The notes: a model not told the origin generated them from the sequence alone. Positions 5,772 to 53,855 are shown, numbered from the stretch's first letter. The stretch is 64,000 bases of DNA from Bacillota bacterium (GCA_023435925.1 JAEZLF010000152.1:5589-69588), one strand, 5' to 3'. A program made the numbers and translations.

Positions 5772-8156
5772 GTGGAAGATAAAACCTTAAGAATACTTGA
5801 GTTTGACAAGATAGTAAAAAAACTGACCGGAATGTGTGCTTCGGAGCTTGGCAGGGAGCTTGCCGAAGAAATGGAGCCTCAAAGAGATCTGTTACATATA
5901 ACCGGAATGCTCAAGGAAACAACAGATGCTGTGGATTTCATCCTCAGAAGAGGCAGTCCTCCACTGGGAGGCCTGCATGATGTCCGCAGCAACCTGAAAC
6001 GGGTTGAGCTGGGCTCTGTGTTGAATCCTGGCGAGCTGTTGCGGATTGGAGACACACTGCGGGCAGCCAGGAATCTGAAAAAATATTCTTCGATTGCGGA
6101 CAGGACGGATTCGGAAGGCACAAATTATATCAGCGGACTGATTGATTCTCTTGAATCCAATAAGCGTATTGAAGATAAGATCAATATGGCAATTGTGAAC
6201 GAGGAAGAAATTTCGGACAGTGCCAGCACAACATTATCAAATATCAGGAGGCAGATCAAGGAACAGCAGAATTCCATCAAAGAAAAGCTCAATAGTATGA
6301 TGAGATCTGCCACATATCAGAAGCTGATGCAGGACTCCATTGTGACCATGAGAGGCGACAGATATGTTGTGCCTGTGAAAGCGGAGTTTAAAAATGATGT
6401 GCCCGGTTTGGTACATGACTCATCAGCCAGCGGTTCCACTGTTTTTATAGAGCCTATGGCAGTGGTGGAGGCTAATAACAGTATCAAACAGCTTAAAGTC
6501 AAGGAGCAGCTGGAGATTGAGCGTATACTGCACGAGCTCACTGCAGACATTGCAGATATTCTTGAACCCTTAAAATACAACATGGGGCTTTTTGCCGATA
6601 TTGATTTTGCTTTTGCCAAAGCAAAGCTGAGTCTTGACTTAAAATGCGTTTGCCCTAAGCTTAATGTTGAAAAGCGAGTCCATATTAAGAAAGGCAGACA
6701 TCCCCTCCTGGACAGCAAAATTGTAGTCCCGATAAACCTGTGGGTGGGAAATGGTTTCAATACACTTGTGGTGACAGGACCTAATACAGGCGGAAAAACA
6801 GTCACATTAAAAACACTTGGGCTTTTCACGTTGATGGCGCAGTCGGGTCTTCACGTACCAGCGGCAGAAGGGACAGAACTAAGTATTTTTAACCGTATTT
6901 TCGCAGATATCGGTGATGAGCAAAGCATTGAACAAAGCCTTAGCACGTTTTCTTCCCATATGACCAATATTGTTAAAATACTGGCTGAAGCAGATGAGAA
7001 TTCGCTGGTGCTTTTTGATGAGCTTGGTGCCGGTACAGACCCTACAGAGGGAGCCGCGCTTGCGATGGCAATCCTTGAAAGGCTTCATCACATGGGTGCT
7101 ACCACCGTTGCTACCACGCATTACAGTGAGTTGAAGGTCTATGCCCTTACAACGGAAGGAGTAGAGAATGCCTGTTGTGAATTTGATGTGGAAACGCTGC
7201 GGCCTACCTACAATCTGCTGATCGGGGTACCAGGGAAGAGCAATGCTTTTGCAATATCCCGACGATTAGGACTTCAGGAGGATATACTGGAAAAAGCCAG
7301 GGAATTCTTATCCGGTGAAGAAATAGAGTTTGAAGATATTCTGATGACAATTGAGAAAAACCGAAGCGATACAGAGAAAGAAAGATTAAAAGCAGAAACC
7401 TTCCGGTTGGAAATTGAGGGATTGAAAAAGGAGCTGGAGGACCAAAAGCAAAAACTGTCGGTGCAAAAGGACAAGCTGCTGCGGGAGGCCAAAGAAGAGG
7501 CCAGGAAAGTACTCCTCAACGCGAAGCAGGATGTGGAAGACATGCTTGAGGAAATGAAGCGCGCCGCAAAAGAGCAGGATGAGGTTTTGAGAAATAAAGC
7601 AGCCGAAGAAGTTCGGGCAAAGCTGAGAAATGATATTAGCGGGCTTGAAGGTGCTATTTCTGAAAGTTTGTTCCCAAGACAGGGGTATATAAAGCCACCG
7701 GAGAATCTGAAACCGGGAGACAGTGTTTTGATCGTCAACCTGAATCAGAAGGGTACGGTTATTACGCCTCCCGACAAAGCCGGAGAAGCCATCATTCAAG
7801 CCGGAATAATGAAGATCAATGTTCATGTAACGAATCTGAAGCTTGTGGATGAGCAGGCCATAGAGACACGTAAATCCGGTGCGGGAAGGATTGGTATGTC
7901 CAAATCCATGAATGTCTCTTCCAGGGCGGATATCAGAGGCTTAAATGTGGACGAGGCTGTCGAAATACTGGGCAAGTTCCTGGATGATGCAGCTATTGCC
8001 GGTCTTTCAGAGGTTACAGTCATTCATGGGAAGGGTACAGGTATGCTGCGAAATGGTGTTCATCAATTCTTAAAATCAAATAGTCATGTCAAGGACTATC
8101 GGCTTGGGAAATATGGCGAGGGCGAATCTGGAGTCACAATAGTAACATTAAAGTAA
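5772..8156 (+). CDS. mutS2: endonuclease MutS2
   Basis: Walker A GPNTGGKTVTLKT, a long coiled-coil region, and a C-terminal Smr domain (DIRGLNVDEA...VIHGKGTGMLR). Confidence 0.95.
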   Translation: MEDKTLRILEFDKIVKKLTGMCASELGRELAEEMEPQRDLLHITGMLKETTDAVDFILRRGSPPLGGLHDVRSNLKRVELGSVLNPGELLRIGDTLRAARNLKKYSSIADRTDSEGTNYISGLIDSLESNKRIEDKINMAIVNEEEISDSASTTLSNIRRQIKEQQNSIKEKLNSMMRSATYQKLMQDSIVTMRGDRYVVPVKAEFKNDVPGLVHDSSASGSTVFIEPMAVVEANNSIKQLKVKEQLEIERILHELTADIADILEPLKYNMGLFADIDFAFAKAKLSLDLKCVCPKLNVEKRVHIKKGRHPLLDSKIVVPINLWVGNGFNTLVVTGPNTGGKTVTLKTLGLFTLMAQSGLHVPAAEGTELSIFNRIFADIGDEQSIEQSLSTFSSHMTNIVKILAEADENSLVLFDELGAGTDPTEGAALAMAILERLHHMGATTVATTHYSELKVYALTTEGVENACCEFDVETLRPTYNLLIGVPGKSNAFAISRRLGLQEDILEKAREFLSGEEIEFEDILMTIEKNRSDTEKERLKAETFRLEIEGLKKELEDQKQKLSVQKDKLLREAKEEARKVLLNAKQDVEDMLEEMKRAAKEQDEVLRNKAAEEVRAKLRNDISGLEGAISESLFPRQGYIKPPENLKPGDSVLIVNLNQKGTVITPPDKAGEAIIQAGIMKINVHVTNLKLVDEQAIETRKSGAGRIGMSKSMNVSSRADIRGLNVDEAVEILGKFLDDAAIAGLSEVTVIHGKGTGMLRNGVHQFLKSNSHVKDYRLGKYGEGESGVTIVTLK

Positions 8157-8170
8157 GAAAAATACAAACA

Positions 8171-8204
8171 AAATGTGAATTTTAACAAAAATTCACATTT
8201 TTTA
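8171..8204 (+). terminator. rho-independent terminator after mutS2
   Basis: aaatgtgaattt / aaattcacattt stem followed by a T-run. Confidence 0.6.
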
Positions 8205-8206
8205 TC

Positions 8207-8235
8207 TTGTATTTCTTTCCAATAACCAATATAAT
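8207..8235 (+). promoter_or_regulatory. sigma-A-type promoter candidate for the NRPS operon
   Basis: TTGTAT, 17 nt, TATAAT, located 58 nt upstream of the NRPS ORF. Confidence 0.45.
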
Positions 8236-8293
8236 TTATTTATATAGGATTTTATGTCGTCAAACATTATGATACCCCACTTATGATAACGAG

Positions 8294-11200
8294 GTGATCG
8301 CCTTGCACAATAATATTGATTTTTATCCTCTTACCCATCCACAAAAGGCAGTCTGGTTTACTGAAAAGCTGCACCCGGGCACATCCATCGGCAATGTCGC
8401 CGCAACTCTAAGAATGAAAGGAACAATCGATTTTTCAGTCCTTGAAAAGGCTATTAATCTGTTTATAAAAAATAATGATTCCATGCGTCTTCGTATTATT
8501 GAGATAGATGGAGAGCCGAAACAATATTTTTCAGAATATCAATATCATACATTTGAGACCATAGATTTTTCTGGTATGGATATCAACGAGTTATACAAAT
8601 GGGATTCATTACAATCAAAAACTCCGCTGGAATTGATTGATTCAGATTTATTTTACTTTGTACTGATAAAATTAAGTGATAATGATAACGGGTTTTACGT
8701 TAAATGCCACCATTTGATTGCAGATGCATGGTCCATGAATCTGCTCGGAAGCAGGATCATGCATATTTATTATGCAATGAAAGGTGAAAGTGAGATTCCT
8801 GAGTTGTATACTCCTTCTTATACTGACTTCATGATGAGTGAAGATCAATATATGGCTTCAAACAGATATATCAAGGATCAGGAATATTGGGACAAGATAT
8901 TTGAATCATTTCCCGAAAGGACTATATTAAAAGCAGATCCACCGGAGCATACCAGTATTAAAGCCAGACGGAAAACAATGATTGCACCAAAAAAACTCAC
9001 TGCCAGGATTTATCAATATTGCTATGAGAATAAAACTTCTGTTTTTTCTCTGTTTGTTGCCGCATTGTCGATGTATATCAACCGAGTGACTGATAAAAAT
9101 GATATCATTTTAGGGACTACGACTTTGAACAGGCTTAATACGAAAGAAAAGGAAACAGTCGGTATGTTCAATAACATTGTCCCAATTCGTATTGATATGA
9201 ATGACAACATGAATTTTAGAACCCTCATTGAGAATGTATCAAGGGAAGGGCTTAAACTATTAAGGCATCAGAAATACCCATATGATTATATTTTGAAATC
9301 GGTCAGGGAGAAGCATCAGATTACGGATAATATCTTTAATATTGTGTTGATTTATCAAAATACAAAGCTTGATATGGACCATATCAAAGAAGAATTTTCC
9401 TCTAGGTGGCATTTTAATGGTTATCAGGTAGATTCTCTGCATATTAGTATCAATGACAGAGAAAATGAAGGAAACCTTATTATTGACTATGACTATCAGA
9501 CAGACTTGTTCCATGCAAAAGAAATTGACTTTATTCATCAGAACATCATTAATGTTTTGTGGCATGCTTTGGACGATCCTGCGAAAACTGTCTCCAGATT
9601 GGAAATGCTCTCTGAAAAAGAGAAATGCAGAATACTACGAGAATTCAACAAGACCAAAATCATTTGCCCTGATGGGTTGGAAACTGATTCTTCGGAAGAA
9701 TATCACAAAGCAATGCTTAGAAAGATTCCAGCACAAACAAAATCCTATATTCTGGATAAAAATCTCAATCTTATGCCAATAGGAATTGCAGGGGATTTAT
9801 TTATTTCAGGAAAAAGCATATCAAATGACAGGCGAAAGGAACTGGTGTTTTTAGATGGAGCCGGCTTACCAAATCCGTATTCCGATGGTGACAGACTTTA
9901 TAGAACCGGTTATAAAGCCAGATGGTACCCGGACGGAGACATATTGTATCTGGGAAGTGTTGTGCCGGGAAACTCATTGAAGTCTGAAAGAATTTATAAT
10001 AAAAGTGAAATAGTAGTTGATATTTTATCCACTTTTACTGCTGAGCCTGTTGAAAGCTATATAAAATGGTGGGGAAGACAATTCGGATATCATTTAAAAA
10101 TAAACTTCGCAGGATACAACCAGATATTTCAGGAGCTTTTGAACCCTGAAAGCTTATTATCAAAGAATAATGACGGAATCAACGTCATTCTGATAAGGTT
10201 TGAGGATTTTATCAGATATGAAAACGGCTCTGATGAAGAAAAAATCAGTATACTGGAAAAAACACAGGAAGAGCTGAAGGACGCTTTTGGCAGTTTTGAG
10301 AGCAAAGCATCCACTGTGGTGGGAATTTTCCCACTGGCGCCTTATTTGGATATGAGTATAGTACTGCAGCAAAAAATTGAAAAGATCAGTATGGATTTCA
10401 AAAGAGCGCTTGAAAAGCATAAAAATGTATTCATTCTGGATTTTTGTGAGATGCAGGCAATATACGGTATTCATGAGGTATTCGATTCTCTTCAGGATAA
10501 AGAGGCGCATATGCCTTTTACAGAAGAATATTATGCAGCAATGGGAACTGAACTAGCGAGGAAAGTATGCGCGATTAGGAAGCAGACATTGAAGGTAATC
10601 GTACTGGATTGTGATAACACTCTGTGGAAAGGAATATGTGGAGAGCAGGGAGCTCTTGGTGTCCATATAACCGAACCTTACCGGCAGCTGCAGCAGTTTA
10701 TGCTTCAGAAATATCAGGAAGGATTTTTGCTTGCAGTTTGCAGTAAAAACAATGAGAAGGATGTTCTTGAAGTCTTTGAAAAGAACCCCGGAATGATTTT
10801 AGAGAAAAAACATTTTATTTCATGGAAAATCAACTGGAAAGAAAAAAGCATAAATATTAAAGAGATTGCAGAGGATTTAAATCTCGGCTTGGACAGCTTC
10901 ATTTTCGTGGATGATAATCCGCTGGAATGCTCCAAAATGGCGGAAAGCTGCCCTGAGGTATTAACTTTGCAGTTACCGTATGTAAATGAATACATACCAC
11001 TGTTTCTGAAACATGTTTGGGCCTTTGACAAGGTGAGGATAACCAATGAAGATATTCTAAGGAATGAGATGTATGAGGCAGAGGCAAAAAGAAAAACGCT
11101 ACAAAATGCAAATAGTACCTTTAAGCAATTTATGCACAGTCTCCATTTGAAAGTCAGCATGAGGGTTATTACAGACGATGAAATTGAAAGAGCGGCACAG

Positions 11201-14200
11201 CTGACACATCGTACAAATCAGTTTAATCTGAGCACGATCAGAAGAAGTGAAGAAGAATTGACTCTTTTATTAGAGAATAAATCCTATACAGGCTTTGTCG
11301 TTGAAGCGTCTGATAGATTTGGGGATTATGGCATCATCGGACTTGTCCTTTTGTATGATGACCGGGAAAAGATCTTCATTGATACATTCCTGATGAGCTG
11401 CAGAATATTTGGCAGAAATGTGGAAAATGTTATGCTCGCAGGAATCGGAAGATTTGCCCGCGAGAGAAAACGAGAGAGGATAGAGGCCGCTTTTGTATCA
11501 ACGGAAAAAAATAAACCCACTTATGAATTTATTATTCTCAATAAGTGGGAACTTCTGATGGAAGCGGATAAGCGGCAGTTGTACTGCATAAAAACAGAAG
11601 AGCTGAAAAAGAAAGTAGAGGGTGTTGAGTTTTATTATAATAAGAAGTTTGCAGATGCTAATGCAGACGGATTATATAAAGGAAATGTGTGTTTGGAACA
11701 CAAGGCAGGAGAGACCGCAAAGACTCATAGCAGCAGCTTCCTGCCGCAATATGATCCGGATTACAATGTGGAATCATATGAGCATATACGTCACAAGGAA
11801 TATATCCTGCCACTCAAATATTTGACGGCAGAAAAACTACTGCAAATTTCTTACGGGTATTGTTCTGATGCGACTTTGTCCGGATTTAATACTACTGAAA
11901 ATGGGAAACAGGAAAAACTCCTGCACATTTGGAAAAGGTTATTAAAAACAGACAAGATTGAGATAGAGGATGATTTTTTTAAGCTTGGTGGTGACTCGTT
12001 GAGTGCTGTTATTCTCCTATCAAACATCAGGAAAGAATTTGGCGTAGAGCTGGCCTTAAAGGATGTTTTCAGATCGGGTACCATTAAAAAGCTTGCACAG
12101 ATTATTGCGGGGTCAAGCAGTAAAAAGGAGGAGCATATAGAACCCGTTGAACCCAAAGCGTATTATGATCTTTCTTCTGCACAGAAAAGAATGTATATAC
12201 TCAATAAGATGGAAGGTCATTCTACAGTATATAATGAATGTCATAGAATTCTCATTGAAGGGAAACTGGATAGAAACAAGTTGGAATCCGCTTTCCAACA
12301 ATTTGTAAACAGACATGAAATTATGAGAACCGGATTTGAGATGATTGAATCGGGACCGGTTCAAATTGTATATGACGATGTAGACTTTAAAATTCCATTT
12401 GCAAAAGTAAAGGAAGAAGACGTACTTAAGGTGACGGATGAATTCATCCAGCCCTTTGATTTACGCAAACCGCCATTAATAAGAGCATCGTTGCTGGAGG
12501 TTGCTAAGGAACGTCATATTCTTTTGTTAGATGTCCATCATATTATTATTGACGGAGCGTCTTTCGGTATATTGATTAAAGAAATTCAGGCTTTATACCG
12601 GGGCAGTGCATTGAGACCGTTGCGAATCCAATATAAGGACTTTGCAAATTGGCAAAATAAATACTTAGTGTCGAATGCAATAAAGAAGCAGGAAGAATAC
12701 TGGAAGCAACAATTTAGCGATGGAATACCGGTGCTGAATATGCCGACAGATCATCCAAGGCCCGCAGTACAAAGCTTTCATGGAAGATGGTACTATTTTA
12801 AACTGGACTCTATTCAAACGGACAGACTAAAAAGCATTTGCGGCATAACAAACACAACACTGTTTATGCTGCTTTATGCTGCTTTTAATGTTTTGTTGCA
12901 CCGATACTCCAGTCAGGAGGATATTGTTGTTGGAATTCCCGTATCCGGCAGAAATCATGAGGATGTAAAAAACATTGCAGGTATGTTTGTCAATACGCTG
13001 CCAATCAGAACGAGTCCTAAAAGTAACTGCAAATTCAGCGAGTATTTAGAGGCAGTAAAAGAAACGATATTAAAGGGACTGGAGAATCAGGATTATCAAT
13101 ATGAAAATTTGGTAGACAAACTCAGCGTACAGAGAGAGCTTAACAGAAATCCGCTGTTTGATATCCTGTTTTCGATGCAGAATACGGATATACCGGATAT
13201 TCAGCTGGATGGCCTTTCTATGAAGCAGTGTAAAGTTGATAGTCACAAATCGAAATTTGATTTATCCCTGCTGGCAGCAGAAAAAAACAATGAATTAGAA
13301 TTTGGATTGGAATATTGCACAGATCTTTTTGAAGAGTATTCTATATTACGACTAAAGGATCATTTTTTGAATATTTTGAAGGACGTGTCAGACAACCTCC
13401 AAAAACCAATATCCGAAATAGAAATATTAAGTGAAGAGGAAAAGAATAAAATCTTATATGAATTTAATAGTACACAGGCGGACTATCCCCGAGATAAGAC
13501 CATACATCAATTGTTTGAAGAACAGGCAGCAAAAACACCGGATGATATTGCTGTTGTATTTGAGAATAAGGAATTGACATACTCCAGGCTTAATACGAGA
13601 GCGAATCAACTTGCAGCATTACTCAGGGATAAAGGTGTAGAACCCGGTGTAATTGTCGGAATTATGGTGAATCGATCATTGGAATTGGTTGTCGGGATTC
13701 TTGCTATCCTAAAAGCAGGTGGAGCCTATCTACCTGTCGATCCCGGTTACCCGGAGGAACGGATCAGATATATGCTTGAGGACAGCGGTATGAAGCTGCT
13801 ACTGACCTCAACTGCTCTTAACAGGCAAGCTTCTTTTGATGATATGATCTATATAAATGAGTGTTTTTCCGGTTTTGATGATGGCGTTTCTTGTTTTAAC
13901 CTCACGAATTTGAATAAATCCAGTGATTTGCTTTATGTAGTATATACTTCTGGTTCTACAGGACAGCCTAAAGGCGTAATGCTCGAGCACAGGAACATGG
14001 CAAACTTAATACATTTTCAGTACACAAAGACAGGGATCAATTTTAAGGAAAGAACCATGCAATTTGCTTCAATGAGCTTTGATGTATGTTCGCAGGAAAT
14101 ATTTTCTGCGCTGCTTACTGGTGGCACATTGGCAATCCTGAGTGATCGGGACAAGAACCGGGTTAACAGTATGTGCGAATTTATTAGGGTACAAAATATT

Positions 14201-15229
14201 AGTGTCATGTTTTTGCCTACTGCATTTTTTAAGTTTTTGGCAAGTCAGAAGGATTATTTGGAGTTGATTCCTGAAAGTGTGAAGCATATTATTGTAGCTG
14301 GAGAAAAACTAACACTAAATGAATATGCCAAGGATTTTTTCAAAAATAGGAATATCAGCCTGCATAATCATTATGGTCCTGCCGAAACCCATGTGGTGAC
14401 AACATATTCTATGGACAAAAACACAATGCTGAAGGATATCCCTTATATAGGGAAGCCCATTTCAAACACACAAATATATATTCTGGATAGCTTGCATCAT
14501 GTACAGCCAATCGGTATTTATGGAGAAATCTATATTGCCGGTGACAACGTAGGCAGAGGATACGCGAATAAGACAGATCTGACAATGAGAAGGTTTAAAA
14601 CCATTGAGATGGGCAAAACAAAAATCAGATGTTATCAAACCGGAGACGTAGGTCGGTGGATACATGACGGTAACATAGAATTTCTCGGCAGGAATGACAA
14701 TCAGGTAAAGATAAGAGGTTACAGGGTTGAACTGGAGGAGGTAGAGAAATGCTTATTAAAGCATGCCGGAATACGGGAATGTGTTGTCATAACGAGAAAG
14801 TTTCCAAACGGAAATACTGATTTGGTGGCATATTTCACTTCGGATGAAGTAGTTGATATCGATTCATTGAAAAGCACCCTAAAAAAGCATTTGCCTATTT
14901 ATATGATTCCGAAGTATTATATGCAAGTAGAAAAAATACAGTTGACGAAGAATGGAAAGGTAAATAAGGACAATTTACCAAATCTGATAATGAGTCCTGC
15001 AAAGAATAATTACACTCCTCCTGCAAGTGAAAAAGAAAAGGAACTTCTCAAAGTTTGGCGGAGTGTACTGGGAATTGACGATCTGAGTATCGAACATAAC
15101 TTTTTTGAAAATGGCGGAGACTCGCTTTTGCTTATTAAGGTTTTATTAGAAGCAGAAAAAAAGGGATATGAAATAACAGTAAAAGATATGTACTTAAAAC
15201 CGAGTGTCAAAGAATTATGCAGATCATAA
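8294..15229 (+). CDS. non-ribosomal peptide synthetase-like megasynthase, C-(A remnant)-FkbH-like-T-C-A-T
   Basis: Motifs in order: HHLIADAWS (C1); SYILDKNLNLMPIGIAGDLFISG...YRTGYKARWYPDGD (A6-A8-like remnant); VLDCDNTLW (HAD-IIIC/FkbH-type); FFKLGGDSLS (T1); HHIIIDGASF (C2). The A domain shows LTYSRLN, YTSGSTGQPKG, NHYGPAET, GEIYIAGDNVGRGY, YQTGDVGRW and GRNDNQVKIRG. T2 is FFENGGDSLL. The start may instead be TTG 8303, behind GAGGTGA. Confidence 0.9.
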   Translation: MIALHNNIDFYPLTHPQKAVWFTEKLHPGTSIGNVAATLRMKGTIDFSVLEKAINLFIKNNDSMRLRIIEIDGEPKQYFSEYQYHTFETIDFSGMDINELYKWDSLQSKTPLELIDSDLFYFVLIKLSDNDNGFYVKCHHLIADAWSMNLLGSRIMHIYYAMKGESEIPELYTPSYTDFMMSEDQYMASNRYIKDQEYWDKIFESFPERTILKADPPEHTSIKARRKTMIAPKKLTARIYQYCYENKTSVFSLFVAALSMYINRVTDKNDIILGTTTLNRLNTKEKETVGMFNNIVPIRIDMNDNMNFRTLIENVSREGLKLLRHQKYPYDYILKSVREKHQITDNIFNIVLIYQNTKLDMDHIKEEFSSRWHFNGYQVDSLHISINDRENEGNLIIDYDYQTDLFHAKEIDFIHQNIINVLWHALDDPAKTVSRLEMLSEKEKCRILREFNKTKIICPDGLETDSSEEYHKAMLRKIPAQTKSYILDKNLNLMPIGIAGDLFISGKSISNDRRKELVFLDGAGLPNPYSDGDRLYRTGYKARWYPDGDILYLGSVVPGNSLKSERIYNKSEIVVDILSTFTAEPVESYIKWWGRQFGYHLKINFAGYNQIFQELLNPESLLSKNNDGINVILIRFEDFIRYENGSDEEKISILEKTQEELKDAFGSFESKASTVVGIFPLAPYLDMSIVLQQKIEKISMDFKRALEKHKNVFILDFCEMQAIYGIHEVFDSLQDKEAHMPFTEEYYAAMGTELARKVCAIRKQTLKVIVLDCDNTLWKGICGEQGALGVHITEPYRQLQQFMLQKYQEGFLLAVCSKNNEKDVLEVFEKNPGMILEKKHFISWKINWKEKSINIKEIAEDLNLGLDSFIFVDDNPLECSKMAESCPEVLTLQLPYVNEYIPLFLKHVWAFDKVRITNEDILRNEMYEAEAKRKTLQNANSTFKQFMHSLHLKVSMRVITDDEIERAAQLTHRTNQFNLSTIRRSEEELTLLLENKSYTGFVVEASDRFGDYGIIGLVLLYDDREKIFIDTFLMSCRIFGRNVENVMLAGIGRFARERKRERIEAAFVSTEKNKPTYEFIILNKWELLMEADKRQLYCIKTEELKKKVEGVEFYYNKKFADANADGLYKGNVCLEHKAGETAKTHSSSFLPQYDPDYNVESYEHIRHKEYILPLKYLTAEKLLQISYGYCSDATLSGFNTTENGKQEKLLHIWKRLLKTDKIEIEDDFFKLGGDSLSAVILLSNIRKEFGVELALKDVFRSGTIKKLAQIIAGSSSKKEEHIEPVEPKAYYDLSSAQKRMYILNKMEGHSTVYNECHRILIEGKLDRNKLESAFQQFVNRHEIMRTGFEMIESGPVQIVYDDVDFKIPFAKVKEEDVLKVTDEFIQPFDLRKPPLIRASLLEVAKERHILLLDVHHIIIDGASFGILIKEIQALYRGSALRPLRIQYKDFANWQNKYLVSNAIKKQEEYWKQQFSDGIPVLNMPTDHPRPAVQSFHGRWYYFKLDSIQTDRLKSICGITNTTLFMLLYAAFNVLLHRYSSQEDIVVGIPVSGRNHEDVKNIAGMFVNTLPIRTSPKSNCKFSEYLEAVKETILKGLENQDYQYENLVDKLSVQRELNRNPLFDILFSMQNTDIPDIQLDGLSMKQCKVDSHKSKFDLSLLAAEKNNELEFGLEYCTDLFEEYSILRLKDHFLNILKDVSDNLQKPISEIEILSEEEKNKILYEFNSTQADYPRDKTIHQLFEEQAAKTPDDIAVVFENKELTYSRLNTRANQLAALLRDKGVEPGVIVGIMVNRSLELVVGILAILKAGGAYLPVDPGYPEERIRYMLEDSGMKLLLTSTALNRQASFDDMIYINECFSGFDDGVSCFNLTNLNKSSDLLYVVYTSGSTGQPKGVMLEHRNMANLIHFQYTKTGINFKERTMQFASMSFDVCSQEIFSALLTGGTLAILSDRDKNRVNSMCEFIRVQNISVMFLPTAFFKFLASQKDYLELIPESVKHIIVAGEKLTLNEYAKDFFKNRNISLHNHYGPAETHVVTTYSMDKNTMLKDIPYIGKPISNTQIYILDSLHHVQPIGIYGEIYIAGDNVGRGYANKTDLTMRRFKTIEMGKTKIRCYQTGDVGRWIHDGNIEFLGRNDNQVKIRGYRVELEEVEKCLLKHAGIRECVVITRKFPNGNTDLVAYFTSDEVVDIDSLKSTLKKHLPIYMIPKYYMQVEKIQLTKNGKVNKDNLPNLIMSPAKNNYTPPASEKEKELLKVWRSVLGIDDLSIEHNFFENGGDSLLLIKVLLEAEKKGYEITVKDMYLKPSVKELCRS

Positions 15230-15247
15230 TTCTTCAGGAGATTAGGA

Positions 15248-17161
15248 ATGACGAATAAAGTATATCTGATTCTGGTTTGTATTACTACCGTTTTACTTGC
15301 TTTACTGGAAGTTTACCTAAATAAAAGTGTGAAAAGTAAAAAAACGATACATGCTTTTTTTGAATATGCAATTCTAAGCATTGGCATTACAAACATTGGC
15401 TATATTTTGATGCTCACGCTGGAGATTTTTTTTCAGTATTATAATACGATTTCTTTTGTATATATCATATTTTTAGGCGCATCTTTTTTTCCTGTGTTTT
15501 TTCTTTTGTTTGGATTGGCTTTTGCAAAACGGGATTTTTCTTTTGAGAGAAAGTATTTGTTTTTATTTGTTATACCGGTGCTAACAAACATTGTTTTATG
15601 GACGAACAGCAGCCATAATCTTTTTTATAAAGAGTACCTTACAAGCTCGGAATACATATATGGACCGTATTTCCTGGTACACATTTTATGGCTATATGGG
15701 TGCGTATTGATTGGGATTGGTAAGCTCTTGTCCTTCTCTATAAAGAATGCAGGTTTCTTTTCCAAGCAGGCTTTGCTTATTATCGCAGGTACTGTACTAC
15801 CTCTCGTTCTTGATGTCGTGTGGATAATGGGAAGCTTTCTTGATATTGAATATTTGAAAATGTTTTCCCAATATGATATTACCCCGATAACTTTTACTTT
15901 TGCAATTATCTGTTATGCACTTGCAATTTTTAAGTTTGATTTTTTAAATGTCGTTCCAATTGCTCTGCAGAGAATAGTGGATATCATATCCGACGGTTTT
16001 ATTGTGATTGATGAAGATTTCAATATTATTGATTATAACGAAACATTTTTAAGTAATTTCAGTAAAATAGCGGATTTTAAGAGGAAAGATAATATCATTG
16101 ATGTATTGGTGGAAAACAATGTACCAGGCATAGATTCAGCGTTGCTCGCCGGTTACTTAAGAAAAGCAGTGGGAAATAAAGAATCTGTGCTGTTTGAAAA
16201 GCAAATAGTATCCAGTGATTTCAATAAATATTTCACAGTTGAAATAACCCCTATTTTTTCTGAAGATAAGAAGAGCTATAATAAGGAAAAGCTTGTAGAG
16301 CGCAAAGGAAAATCCAGTTTGATTGGCATTATCATCCTGCTTAAAGATATTACAGAGCATAAGATGAATCTGAAGGCATTAAAGGAAAACCAGGAAATCC
16401 TCCTCGAACAGGAGCGTCTTGCGTCGCTGGGGCAATTGATCGGTGGAATTGCACATAATCTGAAGACGCCGATCATGTCGATATCCGGAGGTATAGAGGC
16501 ACTTAGGGATCTGACATTCGAATACAGAGATTCAATTGATGATAAAAGTGTTACCGAACAGGATCACAAGGAAATCGCCAGAGAAATGATGTCCTGGTTG
16601 GACAGGATGAAGCCCTATTGCGGGTATATGTCGGATGTGATATCGGCAGTTAAGGGACAAGCTGTTCAGATGAATGCATCTGTAACAAGCAAATTTACAG
16701 TAGATGAACTCATCAAAAGGGTAGATCTGTTGATGAAACATGAACTGAAGAAATACCACTGTATTTTAAAGACTGAAATGAATATTGATAAGAGTACCGA
16801 AATCAAAGGGGAGATTACCAATCTGGTACAGGTTTTCGATAACATCATCATCAATGCCATGCAAGCATACGAAGGCGAAAATGGGTCAATTGACTTGAAA
16901 ATTACACGTAGTGGTGATAATGTTGAATTTATATTTAAAGATCAAGGGAAGGGTATTCCAAAGCAAATTGCGGATAGATTGTTTAAGGAAATGGTTACTA
17001 CGAAAGGCAAAAAAGGTACAGGACTGGGTTTATACATGTCATATTCCACCATTAAAGGCCGATTTGGCGGGAACATGTCTTTTGTATCGAAGGAAGGACA
17101 TGGAACTACCTTTTTTATATCCATACCGTGTATAGCATACAACAGACAGGAGGCAGAATAG
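15248..17161 (+). CDS. sensor histidine kinase with N-terminal polytopic (7TM-type) domain and PAS-like region
   Basis: About 7 hydrophobic helices in the first 240 aa. H-box LGQLIGGIAHNLKTPI. HATPase_c motifs (NLVQVFDNIIINAMQA, DQGKGIP, GTGLGLYMS). AGGAG RBS 18 nt after the NRPS stop. Confidence 0.85.
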   Translation: MTNKVYLILVCITTVLLALLEVYLNKSVKSKKTIHAFFEYAILSIGITNIGYILMLTLEIFFQYYNTISFVYIIFLGASFFPVFFLLFGLAFAKRDFSFERKYLFLFVIPVLTNIVLWTNSSHNLFYKEYLTSSEYIYGPYFLVHILWLYGCVLIGIGKLLSFSIKNAGFFSKQALLIIAGTVLPLVLDVVWIMGSFLDIEYLKMFSQYDITPITFTFAIICYALAIFKFDFLNVVPIALQRIVDIISDGFIVIDEDFNIIDYNETFLSNFSKIADFKRKDNIIDVLVENNVPGIDSALLAGYLRKAVGNKESVLFEKQIVSSDFNKYFTVEITPIFSEDKKSYNKEKLVERKGKSSLIGIIILLKDITEHKMNLKALKENQEILLEQERLASLGQLIGGIAHNLKTPIMSISGGIEALRDLTFEYRDSIDDKSVTEQDHKEIAREMMSWLDRMKPYCGYMSDVISAVKGQAVQMNASVTSKFTVDELIKRVDLLMKHELKKYHCILKTEMNIDKSTEIKGEITNLVQVFDNIIINAMQAYEGENGSIDLKITRSGDNVEFIFKDQGKGIPKQIADRLFKEMVTTKGKKGTGLGLYMSYSTIKGRFGGNMSFVSKEGHGTTFFISIPCIAYNRQEAE

Positions 17162-18670
17162 ATGCGGAGAAAAGCACAAGCAACCAGGTCAAACTACAGA
17201 ATCCTTGTCGTGGACGACGAGATAGGCATTATTGACTCTCTGTCCGTTGTTTTGAAGCGGAGCGGTTATGACTTTACCGGATTGGTGGATCCGCTGGAGG
17301 CTATTGAAAGAGTAAAGACGGAACATTTTGATTTGATGATTCTGGATTTTCTGATGTATCCTATTCATGGCGACAAGGTGGTGCAGACAATCCGGGAGTT
17401 TAATAGTGAATTGTACATTTTACTGCTAACAGGACATAAGGATCTGGCACCGCCTCTTGAAACTATCAAGGCTCTGGATATTCAGGGTTATTGCGAAAAG
17501 AGTGACCGATTTGACCAGCTGTTATTACTTGTAGAATCGGGAATCAAATCCATCTCGCAGATGCGGACTATCAAGAAATTCAGAGACGGTCTTAACAAAA
17601 TACTAGAAGCTGTGCCGAAGATTTATTCGCTCCAGCCTATCGATTCCATATTGCAGGATATACTGTCAGAAATCATGCCTTTGGTGGATAGTGAGAACGC
17701 GTTTATTTTAGTTGATGATACTACGGATATTATTGCCGGTAACAAAAGTATATTTAAAGGTATTGGTAAGTATAAGGCGGAGATTGACTGTTTTATGGAG
17801 ATGCTGAGCCCGAATCTCATGGAACACATCGGATATTCAAGGATATCCCGGCAGGTGGTTAAGCTGGAACAGAGTGTGATATTACCGTTGATCAACGAAT
17901 TTCATCAGACCATTGGCGTTATATTTGTTGAAAGTACAAATATTGAGGATGGCCTGAAGCTGTTGGAGATCTACTCGAATCAGGCGGCATCTTCAATTAA
18001 CAATGCCTTTCTTCATTCACTGGTCAATATGAAAAATGATGAACTCAATAAAACATATGACCTGCTCAAACTTAGATATATGGATACAATTGAAGCATTA
18101 AGGCAGGCCGTTGATGCAAAGGATATTTATACCAGAGGCCATTCTGACCGCGTTGCCTATTATGCCGTCAGAATCGGTGAAGCTGCAGGAATGACAGCAC
18201 ACGAGCTTGAAACTCTCCGAATCAGCGGTGTCTTTCATGATATCGGGAAGATTGGAACAGCGGACGACATTTTACTGAAAACCGACAGGCTTGACGACAG
18301 GGAGCTATTGGAGATACAAAAGCATCCAATTAAGGGAGCTCGAATTTTATCGGCGGTCTCCATGTTTAAGGATGTGGTTCCAATAGTGAAATGTCACCAT
18401 GAAAGAGTGGATGGAACGGGTTACCCGGATGGTTTAAAAAAAGATGAAATACCATTGTCGGCAAGAATTATATCAGTGTCCGATGCATTTGATGCCATGA
18501 TGTCCGACCGGCTTTACCGATCGAAGCTAAATCTTGAAGAAGCGAGGCAGCAGTTGATTAACGGCTCAGGCACACAATTCGATGAGGACATTGTCTCGAT
18601 ATTCATAAAGCTCATCGATGGCACAGGCTTTGGCGAAATGCTGAAGGAAACTGCTGCCACATATGAGTAA
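17162..18670 (+). CDS. response regulator with HD-GYP (c-di-GMP phosphodiesterase-type) output domain
   Basis: REC domain (ILVVDDE, DLMILDFLM), a central GAF-like spacer, and HD-GYP motifs HSDRVAYY, FHDIGKIG, HHERVDGTGYPDGL. The ATG directly abuts the kinase stop codon. Confidence 0.85.
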   Translation: MRRKAQATRSNYRILVVDDEIGIIDSLSVVLKRSGYDFTGLVDPLEAIERVKTEHFDLMILDFLMYPIHGDKVVQTIREFNSELYILLLTGHKDLAPPLETIKALDIQGYCEKSDRFDQLLLLVESGIKSISQMRTIKKFRDGLNKILEAVPKIYSLQPIDSILQDILSEIMPLVDSENAFILVDDTTDIIAGNKSIFKGIGKYKAEIDCFMEMLSPNLMEHIGYSRISRQVVKLEQSVILPLINEFHQTIGVIFVESTNIEDGLKLLEIYSNQAASSINNAFLHSLVNMKNDELNKTYDLLKLRYMDTIEALRQAVDAKDIYTRGHSDRVAYYAVRIGEAAGMTAHELETLRISGVFHDIGKIGTADDILLKTDRLDDRELLEIQKHPIKGARILSAVSMFKDVVPIVKCHHERVDGTGYPDGLKKDEIPLSARIISVSDAFDAMMSDRLYRSKLNLEEARQQLINGSGTQFDEDIVSIFIKLIDGTGFGEMLKETAATYE

Positions 18671-18748
18671 CCATCATCCTCCAGGGAGACTTTTTAGACT
18701 TTCCAGCAGTATTTTCGAAGAGACTTTCCAGCAGCGTTTTCGGAGAGG

Positions 18749-18777
18749 TTGACATTATTTGCTGTATACATTAAAAT
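18749..18777 (+). promoter_or_regulatory. sigma-A-type promoter candidate for typA
   Basis: TTGACA, 17 nt, TAAAAT. Confidence 0.5.
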
Positions 18778-18896: not shown

Positions 18897-20717
18897 GTGG
18901 CAACGAAAAGAGAAGATATCAGAAACATTGCAATTATTGCACATGTAGATCATGGAAAAACAACACTGGTTGACGGAATGCTGCGACAAAGCGGTATTTT
19001 CAGGGAGAACGAGCAGGTACAGGAAAGGGTCATGGATTCCAACGACCTGGAGAGAGAACGAGGCATTACCATACTGGCAAAAAACACAGCAGTGCAGTAC
19101 AAAGGGACGAAAATTAATATCGTGGATACACCTGGACACGCGGATTTCGGCGGTGAGGTTGAGCGTGTTCTAAAGATGGTGGATGGCGTGCTGCTGCTTG
19201 TCGATGCATTTGAGGGTCCGATGCCTCAGACAAGATTTGTTTTGCGCAAAGCTTTGCAACTTAATTTAAAACCCATCGTCGTCGTAAATAAGATTGATAG
19301 ACCGGAGGCAAGGCCGGCTGAAGTTGTTGATGAAGTACTGGAGCTGTTTATTGAATTGGGCGCAGATGATGAGCAGCTGGAATTCCCTGTGATTTATGCC
19401 TCGTCAAGGGACGGATATGCAGTGCAGGATCCGCAGGATGAAAAGAAGAACCTGGAACCGTTGATGGCCTGTATCATGAAGTATGTACCGGCTCCCGCCG
19501 GTGAACCGGATAAACCTCTCCAACTATTGGTTTCCAACATCGACTACGATGAATATGTAGGCCGAATAGCCATCGGACGAATTGACAGGGGCAGTGTTAA
19601 ATCCGGTCAGCAAACCGTTGTTTGTAAAAAAGACGGAAAGATGCAGACAGGGAAAATCAGCAAGCTTTATAAATTCGAAGGGCTCAGAAGAGCTGAGGCA
19701 CCTGAAGCATCTCTTGGAGATATTGTTGCAGTTGCAGGTTTTGCCGAGATCAATATCGGCGAGACGATCTGTGATGTTGACACACCTGAAGCATTGCCTT
19801 TTATCAATATTGATGAACCAACCATTAATATGACCTTCAGCGTAAACAACAGCCCATTGGCAGGCAGAGAAGGCACCTATGTGACCTCAAGACATCTTCG
19901 CGACCGACTTTTCAAGGAGCTTGAGACGAATGTAAGCATGCGGATTGAGGAGACGGAAAGTCCGGATTCGTTCCTTATATCAGGCAGAGGCGAGCTTCAC
20001 CTTTCCATTCTTATTGAGACGATGAGGAGGCAGGGGTATGAGTTCCAGGTATCCAAGCCTAAGGTCATTATGAAGGAAATGGACGGCGTTGAATACGAGC
20101 CCATCGAACTGCTTATGATCGATGTACCTGAGGAATTCATGGGCGTTGTCATGGAAAAGCTGGGCACCCGGAAAGCTGAAATGGTGAATATGCACTCTGC
20201 TACAGAAGGTTACATGAGACTTGAGTTTAAAATTCCGGCCAGAGGCTTGATCGGTTACCGCTCAGAGTTTTTGACGGATACCAAGGGCAATGGTATAATG
20301 AACCATATATTCAATGGACACGAACCCTATAAAGGTGAGATAACAAGCAGAGCAAGGGGTTCGCTGGTTGCCTGGGAAGACGGAGAGGCAGTAACTTACG
20401 GCCTGTACAATGCACAGGAAAGAGGCATTTTATTTATATCTCCCGGTGCCAAGGTCTATGAGGGTATGGTGGTCGGAGAAAATGCCAGAAACGATGATAT
20501 TGTGGTGAATGTCTGCAAGAGAAAGCATGTCACAAATATGAGGGCCTCCGGTTCAGATGAAGCACTGCGGTTGACTCCTCCCAGAAATCTGAGTCTGGAA
20601 CAGGCGTTGGAATTTATTTCAGACGACGAGCTGGTAGAAATTACTCCGAAAACGATGAGAATCCGAAAAAGAATACTGAATACGGAACAAAGGGCAAAGA
20701 TCAGAAGTAAGCAATAA
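18897..20717 (+). CDS. typA: translational GTPase TypA/BipA
   Basis: [33 protein letters not shown] and NKIDR G-motifs. The full-length architecture is EF-G-like. Confidence 0.95.
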
Positions 20718-46954: not shown

Positions 46955-47285
46955 AAATATATAAAGCAAGGGCATTGATGAGAAGAAGTAAGAATTGATT
47001 GGTTTCTACAGAGAGTTCCCGGTTGGTGAGAGGGGCAGAAAACATCATTCTGAATACATCTCTGAGCTTCACACCGAAAAGAAGGGATGGAAAACGTGTC
47101 TCTCGCTTTAGTAGGCTGTTGACGGAATCCTGCACCCGTTATAGTGCTAGAGGATAACATGCTGTTGCAAGCATTCGTCCTTGATAAGGTCTGCACTGCA
47201 AAGTGCCGGTAAATTGAGGTGGTACCACGGGAACAAGACTCTCGTCCTCTGAGTAATTCAGAAGACGAGGGTTTTTTTATTCTGC
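46955..47285 (+). promoter_or_regulatory. T-box leader (Tyr specifier) with terminator
   Basis: Promoter TTGACA-18-TATACT (46919-46948). AGAGA and GGTGAGA stem I elements. GAA-UAC-A specifier (47055-47057). T-box AAATTGAGGTGGTACCACGG (47211-47230). Terminator 47239-47279. Confidence 0.85.
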
Positions 47286-47358
47286 GGGGAATAATATTTT
47301 CTGTTTTCTGCACATGGGGGTCGGAAAACTGATGCATCAAAATGGCGAAAGGAGCACG

Positions 47359-48579
47359 ATGATGGTTTCAATGGATGAGCAAATTAGAATTATTGCAAAA
47401 GGAGCCGAAGAAATTATTAACACAGATGACCTGAAGAGAAAGCTTGAGAGGTCACAAAAGACTGGAATACCGCTAAAGGTTAAGCTTGGTCTTGACCCGA
47501 CTGCCCCGGATATTCATATCGGGCATGCGGTTGTGCTGCGTAAAATCAAGCAGTTTCAGGATCTGGGGCATAGAGCGGTTATTGTCATTGGGGATTTTAC
47601 CGGTATGATTGGAGACCCTACCGGAAAATCCAAAACAAGAAAGCCGCTGACTCGAGAGGAAGTTATAGAGAATGCTAGGACCTATGAAAGGCAGATTTTT
47701 AAAATACTTGACAGAGAAAAGACAGAAGTCCGGTTTAACAGTGAATGGCTGTCAAAACTGAATTTTGCAGATGTTATCGGTTTGGCCTCCAAGTGCACGG
47801 TTGCAAGAATACTGGAGAGGGATGATTTTCAAAGCCGCTTTCAAGCCCACGAGAGTATTGGGGTTCATGAGTTTTTCTATCCTTTGATGCAGGGCTTTGA
47901 TTCCGTAGAGCTGAAATCAGATGTTGAGCTTGGTGGTACAGATCAGAGGTTTAATATTCTGATGGGGAGAAATCTGCAAAAGGACTATGGACAAGAAAGC
48001 CAGATCGCCTTATTTATGCCTATTCTTGAAGGGACCGATGGAGTAGAAAAAATGAGTAAAAGCCTGGGAAATTATATCGGCATTCATGAGGAGCCAAACG
48101 ATATCTATGGAAAGGTAATGTCGATACCCGACAATTTAATCGTAAGATATTTTATGCTTGCCACCGATATACATCCGGATGAATTAAGCGAAATAAAAGA
48201 AGCATTGGACTCCGGCAAGATGAACCCTCGTGATATGAAGATGAAGCTTGCAAGAGAAATTACAGGCTTATACCACGGATCAGAAGCGGCTGCATTGGCA
48301 CAGGAGCATTTCACAATAGTGTTTCAGAAGCATGAAATGCCGGAAAATGTTCCTGAGTATTGGATTTCCGCAAGCATGTTTGAAAAAGATGAAATTGACC
48401 TTGTGAAGCTGTTGGTACAGATAGGCTTTTCATCAAGCAACAGTGAAGCCAGAAGGCTGATTTCACAAGGAGCCGTAAAAGTGAATGGCAATAGAGTTGA
48501 TGCTTTTAAAGTAAAAGGCCTCTGTGATGGTGATGTGGTTCAGGCCGGCAAGCTCAGGTTCATACGAATCAGAGTCTAG
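47359..48579 (+). CDS. tyrS: tyrosine--tRNA ligase
   Basis: HIGH (DIHIGHAV) and KMSKS (EKMSKSLGN) motifs. C-terminal S4-like domain. ATG lies behind AAAGGAG. Confidence 0.95.
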   Translation: MMVSMDEQIRIIAKGAEEIINTDDLKRKLERSQKTGIPLKVKLGLDPTAPDIHIGHAVVLRKIKQFQDLGHRAVIVIGDFTGMIGDPTGKSKTRKPLTREEVIENARTYERQIFKILDREKTEVRFNSEWLSKLNFADVIGLASKCTVARILERDDFQSRFQAHESIGVHEFFYPLMQGFDSVELKSDVELGGTDQRFNILMGRNLQKDYGQESQIALFMPILEGTDGVEKMSKSLGNYIGIHEEPNDIYGKVMSIPDNLIVRYFMLATDIHPDELSEIKEALDSGKMNPRDMKMKLAREITGLYHGSEAAALAQEHFTIVFQKHEMPENVPEYWISASMFEKDEIDLVKLLVQIGFSSSNSEARRLISQGAVKVNGNRVDAFKVKGLCDGDVVQAGKLRFIRIRV

Positions 48580-53384: not shown

Positions 53385-53715
53385 TAAAAAAGCCCTCACC
53401 TCCAGGATACTATCCTGGGGACGAGAGCATGATACTTCGTGTTACCACCCCGGTTTATTGATACTTCGCAGCATCAACCTCAGTAAGAACTAATGTAAGC
53501 AGATACATCCTTCCAGGCTTACACGCCATTCTCCGGCACGGTAACGGGTGCATACGTTGCAGCCTATAAGCGGAGGGACATATCGTTTGTTCTGCCTCGC
53601 TTATTCGGTGCAATAGCTCCAAGACCATCTTCAGTCAGCTATTCTTTACTCCCTCTCAGCAAACGGAGTTCTCTGTAAAAGACATCCATGACTTACTCTT
53701 CTTTTCATCGCGTTT
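53385..53715 (-). promoter_or_regulatory. T-box leader upstream of metG (minus strand)
   Basis: Minus-strand reading: promoter TTGACT-17-TAATAT (53749-53721). cAGAGAac and gcTGAGAggg stem I elements. AUG in the specifier region (53628-53626). T-box AACCGGGGTGGTAACACG. Terminator ccccaggat/atcctggagg followed by a T-run (53425-53386). Confidence 0.75.
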
Positions 53716-53855
53716 CCAGTTTTTCTCTATATATTAATACGCTTAAAGGTTCAAGTCAATAGGTTGTGAAGGAATTACTTCAAAACCTTTGCCGAATTTT
53801 ACCTCAGATGCTTATGGAGCGGTTCCGGGGTTGGAGAATATAAGCAAACGATGTG

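Follow-up and report, generated by a model that had tools for sequence, protein, structure and literature searches.

Why should a nonribosomal peptide synthetase (NRPS) be encoded beside a seven-transmembrane (7TM) sensor kinase and a response regulator of the type that degrades cyclic di-GMP (c-di-GMP)? This arrangement is found in a 64,000-nucleotide stretch of DNA from a Bacillota bacterium (GCA_023435925.1, JAEZLF010000152.1:5589-69588), hereafter termed the window. An initial annotation offered, as one possible reading, a self-contained module in which a small molecule is made, sensed by the kinase, and converted into a lowered c-di-GMP level. Our analysis suggests that the module both produces a small molecule and responds to it, and thus forms an autoinducer-like circuit resembling the Rpf/DSF (diffusible signal factor) or agr systems. 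We regard this circuit as moderately probable. The sequence "make it, sense it, lower c-di-GMP" proved on balance to be the best-supported explanation, given the co-variation of sensor and synthetase and the intact HD-GYP motifs of the regulator.

The three genes are tightly packed on the plus strand at positions 8303-18670, and their coordinates had been assigned correctly. They encode an NRPS (8303-15229; open reading frame 8294-15229), a sensor histidine kinase with a HisKA_7TM domain (15248-17161), and a REC-DUF3369-HD-GYP response regulator (17162-18670). The NRPS is composed of condensation (C), FkbH, thiolation (T) and adenylation (A) domains in the order C-FkbH-T-C-A(Pro)-T. The kinase ATG lies 18 nt past the NRPS TAA and is preceded by an AGGAG ribosome-binding site (15236-15240), and the regulator ATG at 17162 directly abuts the kinase TAG (17159-17161) with a gap of 0 nt.

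The initial annotation proposed that co-occurrence across genomes would show whether homologues of the NRPS are ever linked to such a kinase/HD-GYP pair, and the linkage was found to be near-universal in both directions. A search with the whole NRPS produced 12 proteins at 95-100% query coverage, one of which is the window's own protein; the others share 41-81% identity with it. All nine homologues that were examined (eight full-length and one additional C-FkbH enzyme) have a HisKA_7TM kinase gene directly downstream, and then a response regulator gene. These linked homologues span at least three genomic contexts. Several occupy the same site between mutS2 and typA as the window cassette. One (locus L007) lies among genes for a helicase, a GGDEF-EAL protein and a phosphopantetheinyl transferase (PPTase), with an ABC exporter gene downstream, and another (L010) follows mltG. 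In the complete genome of Dehalobacter sp. DCM (L171, CP092282.1), genes for a PPTase, NRPS, kinase and HD-GYP regulator are found elsewhere.

The converse search started from the kinase. An alignment of the 7TM domain was compared with one genome per species, and the best 80 of 229 relatives were used. A protein search with the 7TM region gave only truncated proteins of at most 450 amino acids, which were of use as alignment rows but carried no gene context. After duplicates had been removed and earlier loci added, counts were made for loci with at least 3 kb of upstream DNA. NRPS domains lie directly upstream of the related 7TM kinase in all 78 of the 78 assessable loci, and the distance from the NRPS end to the kinase start is mostly between -29 and about +80 nt. 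Of 73 loci, 53 have a REC-HD-GYP gene no more than 3.5 kb away, and the number rises to 64 when the limit is set at 11.5 kb. A scan of metagenomes seeded on the N-terminal C domain yielded 79 loci, about 48 of which have enough downstream DNA. The kinase follows the NRPS in about 46 of these 48 (the exceptions are L136 and L166), and is mostly followed in turn by REC-(DUF3369)-HD-GYP. Carriers number well above 100 among uncultured anaerobic Firmicutes, and many come from guts. Nearly all are metagenome-assembled genomes of uncultured Clostridia, obtained from human, rabbit, chicken, mouse/rodent and ruminant guts, and also from bioreactors. Many genomic contexts are represented, with mutS2 or typA nearby in only ~16 of roughly 165 loci. 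At least 15 loci have a PPTase gene directly upstream of the NRPS.

If the kinase senses the product of its neighbor, as the gene order would suggest, the sensor domain might be expected to change together with the synthetase. Among relatives at the mutS2-typA site, the kinase core (the phosphoacceptor and catalytic domains, DHp+CA) and the REC, DUF3369 and HD-GYP domains of the regulator stay 75-97% identical. The first C domain (C1), FkbH and the second C domain (C2) are near 60-70% identity among window-type relatives. When the window clade is compared with other relatives, identity falls jointly in the A domain and the 7TM domain, to 41-55%. Sliding identity places a hypervariable "specificity cassette" at 13793-15967 on the plus strand. 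This low-identity block begins at approximately NRPS residue 1834, in the A-domain pocket, and continues through the second carrier domain (T2) and the position of a lost thioesterase (TE) to approximately kinase residue 240, where the 7TM region ends. Identity within the block is 12-61% in comparisons with Gly- or Ser-type relatives and 50-84% within the Pro clade, and the flanks of the block are equally conserved between and within clades. The break coincides with loss of the TE and with a change of pocket code, which is that of proline in the window clade and of serine (DVWHFSLVDK) or glycine (DILQLGMVWK) in the relatives. The agr-like hypervariable block is thus seen at the boundary between Pro/TE-less and Gly/Ser types, and not between the Ser and Gly types.

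Partial Mantel tests were conducted on 41 complete modules whose NRPSs have the order C-A-T-C-A-T-R, in which R is a terminal reductase. Similarity of the 7TM domains correlates with that of the two pocket codes when similarity of the kinase core is controlled (r=0.47, p<=5e-4), although permutation tests of this kind are liberal on related sequences and overstate significance. The correlation is r=0.17-0.19 when identity of C1, C2, R and both A domains (A1 and A2) is also controlled. The codes do not correlate with similarity of the kinase core (r=-0.05, p=0.89). Moreover, 7TM similarity correlates better with C1 and C2 (r=0.67) than with the kinase's own catalytic core (r=0.43). These results are supportive, but not decisive, of the view that the sensor domain tracks the synthetase and not its own kinase core.

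The NRPS consists of a C domain, a vestigial A-domain fragment, FkbH_N and FkbH, and then T, C, A and T domains, and all of its catalytic motifs are present (HHLIADA, DCDNT, SCRI, GGDSL twice, HHIIIDG and TSGSTGQPK). Pfam model PF00668 matches the protein twice, with 726 bits in total. C1 (8318-9634; Condensation E 2.4e-92; HHLIADA at residue 136) may be of the starter type, to judge by its position; its matches among solved structures are a mixture of starter and elongation C domains and do not decide the subtype. Between C1 and FkbH, the stretch at 9749-9943 (residues ~483-547) aligns with the C-terminal regions of A domains from other NRPSs, and one homologue has a faint AMP-binding_C match here. 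The core motifs of this remnant appear as invariant columns (I/L/D...LYKTG-like...ARW.P.GDI), and every homologue retains it. This suggests that FkbH took the place of the N-terminal core of an ancestral A domain and not of a whole module.

The FkbH module (10061-11530) includes FkbH_N (10061-10522; PF21211, 27.3 bits) and a HAD/FkbH core (10586-11530; TIGR01686, 285.7 bits against a cut-off of 146.65). Its DxDxT motif (DCDNT, residue 769) and the cysteine of its SCR(I) motif (SCRI, 1032) are invariant in eight homologues, and it is a predicted glyceryl loader in the position of an A domain. FkbH modules of the vioprolide and cystomanamide pathways likewise replace an A domain and load glycerate on a T domain, and in vioprolide biosynthesis an ester bond between a fatty acid and the glycerate is formed by the neighboring C domain (PMC8949500). 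However, those modules are parts of large myxobacterial assembly lines, whereas the window NRPS is a two-module enzyme of an uncultured Bacillota/Clostridia-like bacterium and has an A-domain remnant fused in. The remaining domains are the first carrier T1 (11912-12103; PP-binding E 2.7e-16; GGDSL at residue 1229), C2 (12164-13456; HHIIIDG at residue 1412), the A domain (13514-14959) and T2 (15041-15223; PP-binding; GGDSL at residue 2271), with which the protein ends. The A domain matches PF00501 (272.7 bits) and TIGR01733 (435.6 bits, cut-off 317.4). Its pocket code was read by alignment to a GrsA fragment, for which this reading recovers the known code DAWTIAAICK. The resulting code for the window, DVQFIAHV-K, is of the proline type, so the predicted substrate is proline. 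No TE or R release domain is present in the window NRPS, and the TE columns are empty throughout its clade. Because a reductase is absent, the enzyme cannot make an aldehyde. The predicted product is (acyl)glyceroyl-proline.

The kinase contains a 7TM region (15275-15958), a PAS-like domain (15986-16267), a HisKA domain (16427-16540) with the phosphoacceptor His403, and a HATPase domain (16814-17128). Its HisKA_7TM match (PF16927) scores 122.5 bits against a cut-off of 28.6. The expected boxes are present (the H-box of His403, NIIINA, DQGKG and GTGLGL), and the protein has no REC or HPt domain. An AlphaFold2 model of residues 1-261 has seven transmembrane helices and a short hairpin (pLDDT 85.8, pTM 0.81). 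Foldseek comparison of this model with the Protein Data Bank (PDB) returned marginal matches (E 2e-3 to 3e-2, TM-score 0.55-0.65), all of them weakly similar eukaryotic G protein-coupled receptors (GPCRs), with the lipid receptors LPA1 and S1P1 at the top. This result would fit a ligand pocket inside a seven-helix bundle, and is a lead rather than a sign of homology. The HisKA_7TM family is very large, with 19,449 clusters at 50% identity (E<=1e-3), and the NRPS-linked kinases are one subfamily of it. In Dehalobacter sp. DCM, a DDE transposase gene (17072-18514, minus strand, within 16861-19260 of L171) is inserted among the first helices of the kinase 7TM region. The region is found partly on both sides of the insertion sequence, with 7TM residues 1-44 before it and 14-245 after it. 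Given this insertion, the sensor of this cultured carrier is probably broken.

The regulator comprises a REC domain (17201-17527), a DUF3369/GAF-like domain (17537-18019) and an HD-GYP domain (HD_5/HD, 18095-18589), and its REC, DUF3369 and HD-GYP Pfam matches are above the cut-offs. The acceptor aspartate (in MILD), the HD pair, HHERVDGTGYP and RLYR (RxY[K/R]) are intact, and HHExxDGxGYP is present in 56 of 56 regulators of the family. In the HD-GYP protein PmGH, the backbone of a further motif, KPG, contacts the second guanine. The corresponding residues in the window regulator (~378-380; 18290-18300 region) read KTD, and in sister regulators they read KES, KTD, KEA or other variants. Among solved structures, the best match is V-cGAP3 (5z7c, E 3.4e-37), which is specific for cyclic GMP-AMP (cGAMP). 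Because of the KTD variant and this relative, the predicted substrate is c-di-GMP or 3'3'-cGAMP. The domain order REC-DUF3369-HD-GYP is the "RpfY" architecture of Galperin and Chou, and characterized proteins that have it hydrolyze c-di-GMP; some proteins of the RpfG family are weak catalysts and act by protein interaction (bioRxiv 10.1101/2021.11.05.467447). Control of NRPS transcription by the regulator was also considered, and was rejected because the protein has no DNA-binding domain.

These features suggest the following scheme. FkbH would load glycerate from 1,3-bisphosphoglycerate, the N-terminal C domain would probably add an acyl group first, and C2 would couple the (acyl)glyceroyl group with proline that the A domain has activated. 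In the absence of a TE, the glyceroyl-prolyl thioester may cyclize by itself through the glycerate hydroxyl to form a six-membered morpholine-dione ring, or else might be released by a trans-acting hydrolase. We propose that the cis-prone prolyl amide aids ring closure, which would explain why the TE has been lost in the Pro clade only. The GPCR-like 7TM domain would recognize the small and probably lipophilic product within the membrane. The kinase would then phosphorylate the REC domain of the regulator, and the HD-GYP domain would hydrolyze c-di-GMP (or possibly 3'3'-cGAMP) to bring about a lifestyle switch. Taken as a whole, the module would act in quorum sensing or as an autocrine circuit, similar in kind to Rpf/DSF and with agr-like specificity groups.

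Several observations weigh against such a circuit. The change from Ser- to Gly-type A domains leaves the 7TM domain unaltered. The hypervariable block is contiguous DNA, and one recombination event could explain the joint jump of A domain and sensor with no functional coupling between them. The correlation of the 7TM domain with C1 and C2 suggests that much of the signal is co-inheritance with the whole NRPS, and the permutation tests have the liberal behavior noted above. The nine of 73 loci that lack REC-HD-GYP within 11.5 kb have REC-HATPase, REC with an unknown 190-aa domain, or no regulator in reach. The marginal Foldseek matches could reflect generic similarity of seven-helix bundles, the KPG motif of the regulator is altered, neither an exporter nor a PPTase gene is present in the window, and the product is deduced from domain order and from a specificity code aligned to a GrsA reference fragment. 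One could ask whether the genes are neighbors by accident, as an islet of low GC content that holds an NRPS and an unrelated two-component pair. The GC content of the cassette (35-39%, versus 43-46% in the flanks) and its position between housekeeping genes would agree with this idea. However, the linkage persists where NRPS identity is as low as 41% and where the genomic context is unrelated, and both locus counts given above, which represent independent loci, effectively refute fortuitous adjacency; we assign it hardly any probability. A more serious objection is that the genes are merely co-expressed. In that case, the 7TM kinase would respond to something else, for example a lipid from the host or the diet, membrane state or a signal of other species, and the operon would only couple metabolite production in time with the lowering of c-di-GMP. 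Co-expression would explain the tight operon and the universal linkage equally well. It also agrees with the unchanged 7TM domain at the Ser-to-Gly switch, and with the size of the HisKA_7TM family, whose sensor fold has no general tie to NRPS products. However, a cue unrelated to the product predicts neither pattern of co-variation: the 7TM domain resembles its partner NRPS more than its own core and keeps a partial correlation with the specificity residues of the A domains, and 7TM and A domain diverge together at the Pro/TE-loss transition while the signaling core stays ~80-90% identical. Both patterns count against co-expression alone, which we consider unlikely, although far from negligible.

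The same co-variation evidence that favors an autoinducer-like circuit would also be expected if the kinase served the producer itself, by detecting accumulation of its own, possibly membrane-active or protease-reactive product in the envelope and adjusting the cell via c-di-GMP, with cell-to-cell communication not being the purpose. The lack of a dedicated exporter in the window suits such feedback or self-protection, as does the reactivity of the peptide aldehydes that related R-terminated NRPSs of this type make. Yet the regulator has no DNA-binding output with which to induce resistance or efflux genes, and ABC exporter genes adjoin the module in some relatives, which implies that the product leaves the cell. 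Self-protection thus seems decidedly improbable. A different kind of doubt touches only the last step of the scheme and is compatible with every other reading, namely that the HD-GYP domain acts on 3'3'-cGAMP or by protein-protein contacts and not by hydrolysis of c-di-GMP. The cGAMP-specific V-cGAP3 as nearest solved structure, the replacement of KPG at a position that varies in the family, and the RpfG-family proteins that work through protein interaction all point in this direction. The intact HD, HHExxDGxGYP and RLYR motifs, the activity of characterized proteins of the same architecture, and the GGDEF-EAL gene that adjoins the module in L007 point instead to c-di-GMP, and we judge a different output to be rather improbable.

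The autoinducer-like circuit favored here can be compared with several known systems. In the Rpf/DSF system of Xanthomonas (rpfF-rpfC-rpfG), a synthase gene also lies beside genes for a polytopic kinase and a REC-HD-GYP regulator, and the output is c-di-GMP turnover and not transcription, as is predicted here from the genes. However, the DSF synthase is an enoyl-CoA hydratase (an RpfF-type crotonase) and not an NRPS, and its sensor is the hybrid RpfC, whereas the kinase described here is of the HisKA_7TM type and lacks REC and HPt domains. Also, the regulator has an extra DUF3369/GAF-like domain, and the hosts are anaerobic Firmicutes. The agr system (AgrBDCA) of staphylococci and clostridia is similar in that one operon combines signal production with a polytopic sensor kinase, and in that a contiguous hypervariable block covers the part that determines synthesis specificity together with the sensor, while kinase core and regulator are conserved. 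In contrast to the nonribosomal product predicted here, the agr signal is a ribosomal thiolactone peptide. The agr regulator is a LytTR transcription factor, whereas the motifs of the present regulator are of the cyclic-dinucleotide phosphodiesterase type, and the block pattern is seen here at one transition (Pro) and not between Ser and Gly.

Synthase genes are also found beside genes for multi-pass membrane kinases in the CqsA/CqsS system of Vibrio and the LqsA/LqsS system of Legionella. CqsS and LqsS bind a small lipophilic ligand in the transmembrane domain, which is only predicted for the kinase described here. Unlike the NRPS, CqsA and LqsA are pyridoxal phosphate-dependent acyl-CoA transferases, and their output passes by phosphorelay to transcription. 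In the Vfm system of Dickeya and the Pvf system of Pseudomonas, NRPS-like enzymes make a signaling molecule, and for Vfm the signal is read by a two-component pair of the same cluster. However, Vfm and Pvf are multi-gene pathways of Proteobacteria with transcriptional output, and they have neither a HisKA_7TM sensor nor an HD-GYP regulator. Because its synthase and sensor come from different families, the module is not a member of the Rpf/DSF, agr, CqsA/CqsS or Vfm systems. A literature search, whose reach did not extend to the primary papers on gut NRPSs, found no description of an NRPS linked to a 7TM kinase and HD-GYP regulator.

The synthetases that accompany this kinase subfamily are of several kinds. 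When the kinase-centered loci were classified by domain queries, 47 were found to have a C-A-T-C-A-T-R enzyme. C-FkbH-T-C-A-T-TE is present in seven loci, and the same order without TE in three, plus the window. Four loci have C-A-T-R, one has C-FkbH-...-R, and four have C-A-T according to the domain queries, although Pfam finds a TE in the one of these that was scanned. Guo et al. in 2017 and Schneider et al. (ruminopeptin) reportedly described a family of dipeptide-aldehyde NRPSs from gut commensals, and we take C-A-T-C-A-T-R to be the domain order of this family. C-A-T-C-A-T-R enzymes are thus the commonest partner of the kinase subfamily, and those from guts share with the window NRPS the type of the N-terminal C domain, at 31-37% identity. 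The window NRPS differs from this type in having FkbH where the first A domain would be, a single A domain, and no reductase. Passages of PMC8210680 and PMC12327764 describe the dipeptide-aldehyde family and propose inhibition of host proteases as its role, and PMC8210680 there refers to Guo et al. 2017 on compounds of this kind from gut commensals.

Quorum-sensing-like circuits with adjacent synthase and receptor genes are already known (DSF, CAI-1, agr, Vfm). What appears to be new here is the near-obligate linkage over several NRPS chemotypes in well over a hundred uncultured Clostridia. It is quite possible, though somewhat less likely than not, that an entire class of small NRPSs from anaerobic Firmicutes, with the gut C-A-T-C-A-T-R type among them, are autoinducer synthases of a widespread and unrecognized quorum-sensing system, in which each NRPS is paired with a GPCR-like 7TM kinase and an HD-GYP regulator, and which has agr-like specificity groups and acts on c-di-GMP and not on transcription. 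If so, gut NRPS products that have no established role for their producer would gain a testable native function, and the large, ligand-less family of HisKA_7TM sensors would gain matched pairs of ligand and receptor. There would also be a route from small nonribosomal metabolites to c-di-GMP-dependent motility, adhesion and sporulation in gut anaerobes. The module is of more than local interest because it reaches to the gut dipeptide-aldehyde type and offers candidate ligands for an orphan sensor family.

Variation among the modules extends to the genes around the kinase. At the mutS2-typA site of L022, L083, L095-L097 and L117, the NRPS is of the C-FkbH-T-C-A-T, C-A-T-C-A-T-R or C-A-T-R type, and the kinase core and regulator are ~70-90% identical; L117 lacks the regulator, so that typA is the gene directly after the kinase. 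The most divergent C-FkbH-type loci have a REC domain joined to a C-terminal domain of ~190 aa (L010 11561-12586, L045 11773-12795, L015 2611-3633). This domain has no Pfam, NCBIfam or PDB match, and may be a new output domain in place of HD-GYP. A REC-HATPase gene, and not REC-HD-GYP, follows the 7TM kinase in L014 (11861-13084) and L085 (2754-3983), which suggests a longer phosphorelay in some variants. At 8445-12406, L073 has tandem HisKA_7TM kinase genes downstream of one NRPS, with REC-HD-GYP only after the second. Kinase and regulator are 110-560 nt apart in many C-A-T-C-A-T-R loci (for example, L018 11794-11912 and L024 11704-11927), whereas window-type modules have gaps of 0-4 nt or overlapping genes. 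Other genes, such as one for an alpha/beta hydrolase in L021, are situated between kinase and regulator in ~10 loci. In L047, a gene for an MscS-type channel directly follows the kinase, and no regulator is seen in the DNA examined.

Transcription signals in the window are consistent with the three genes being one operon-like module. A terminator-like hairpin with a perfect 14-bp stem, 4-nt loop and U-run (8170-8203, plus strand) closes the mutS2 unit. Its predicted folding energy is -12.3 kcal/mol (z -4.43), a stability that none of 200 shuffles reaches, and it is partly kept in relatives. The terminator scanner missed it because it has fewer than three G-C pairs. The single promoter that the initial annotation placed at 8207-8235 has a -35 element TTGTAT (8207-8212), a 17-nt spacer and a -10 element TATAAT (8230-8235). 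By consensus alone it does not exceed the level of chance; the promoter scanner reported 42 sites where shuffled sequences lead one to expect 41.6, and this promoter was not among them, its -35 element matching at only 3/6 positions. The promoter stands, however, on its conservation in six loci whose NRPSs are ~50-65% identical: the -10 sequence CCAATATAAT is invariant and the -35 sequence CTTGTAT nearly so, within spacers that have otherwise diverged, which is good comparative evidence for a real promoter. The NRPS more likely starts at the TTG at 8303, behind the ribosome-binding site GAGGTG (8290-8305 for site and start codon together), because GAGGTG-N6-TTG is conserved in L003, L004 and L005. 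Database protein P0001, of 2308 aa, agrees with this start.

Neither the scanner nor folding revealed a convincing terminator within the trio, in agreement with the initial annotation. The only two plus-strand terminator-like hits (12345-12364 and 15113-15126) are both weak and within coding sequence, and such hits are no more frequent than chance would give. A hairpin at the NRPS-kinase junction (15210-15234) was ruled out as a terminator, having no U-run and z -1.78. Overlap of NRPS stop and kinase start is frequent among homologues (-1 to -29 nt), a sign of translational coupling. Co-transcription of the three genes, as previously proposed, is thus supported by gaps of 0-18 nt, the overlaps in homologues, one conserved promoter and the lack of an internal terminator. 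Between the regulator end at 18670 and the promoter of typA, scanner and folding likewise found no terminator, and there may be read-through from the regulator into typA. The latter gene has a strong promoter of its own (TTGACA-17-TAAAAT, 18749-18777, plus strand; 11/12 matches), which marks the downstream boundary of the cassette. In the interval between the regulator stop and this promoter, the 14-nt sequence AGACTTTCCAGCAG is present as an exact direct repeat (18696-18709 and 18721-18734) with a spacing of 25 nt. With up to two mismatches allowed, it occurs four times in the window, versus 0.41 expected by chance. The repeat may be a typA operator or a scar of cassette insertion.

The cassette as a whole (8170-18777, plus strand) is compact and is inserted between mutS2 (5772-8156) and typA (18897-20717), both named by NCBIfam equivalog models. 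These flanking genes and mltG are housekeeping genes, and more such genes lie beyond mutS2 and typA on both sides. The usual NRPS accessory genes had been described as absent from the neighborhood. This is correct for the window, where tblastn with PPTase, TE, R and GGDEF queries from related loci (MbtH not being among the queries) found no homologue, but it does not hold for relatives, in which a TE or R domain is fused to the NRPS, a PPTase gene is adjacent and ABC exporter genes are sometimes present. A gene for a 4HBT-family thioesterase (2485-2901) is situated 5.4 kb upstream within conserved housekeeping synteny, and also near the TE-containing relative L005. Its product is conceivable as a trans-acting release enzyme for the TE-less NRPS. 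Feedback by a c-di-GMP riboswitch on the NRPS leader was considered as well and is unsupported: an Rfam scan that covered the window and loci L003, L007 and L018 gave just two distant T-box leaders. Both score above the Rfam gathering score (46966-47252, plus strand, 108.8 bits; 53414-53717, minus strand, 95.9 bits), and they precede open reading frames at 47314-48579 (plus strand) and 51699-53324 (minus strand) that are unrelated to the cassette.

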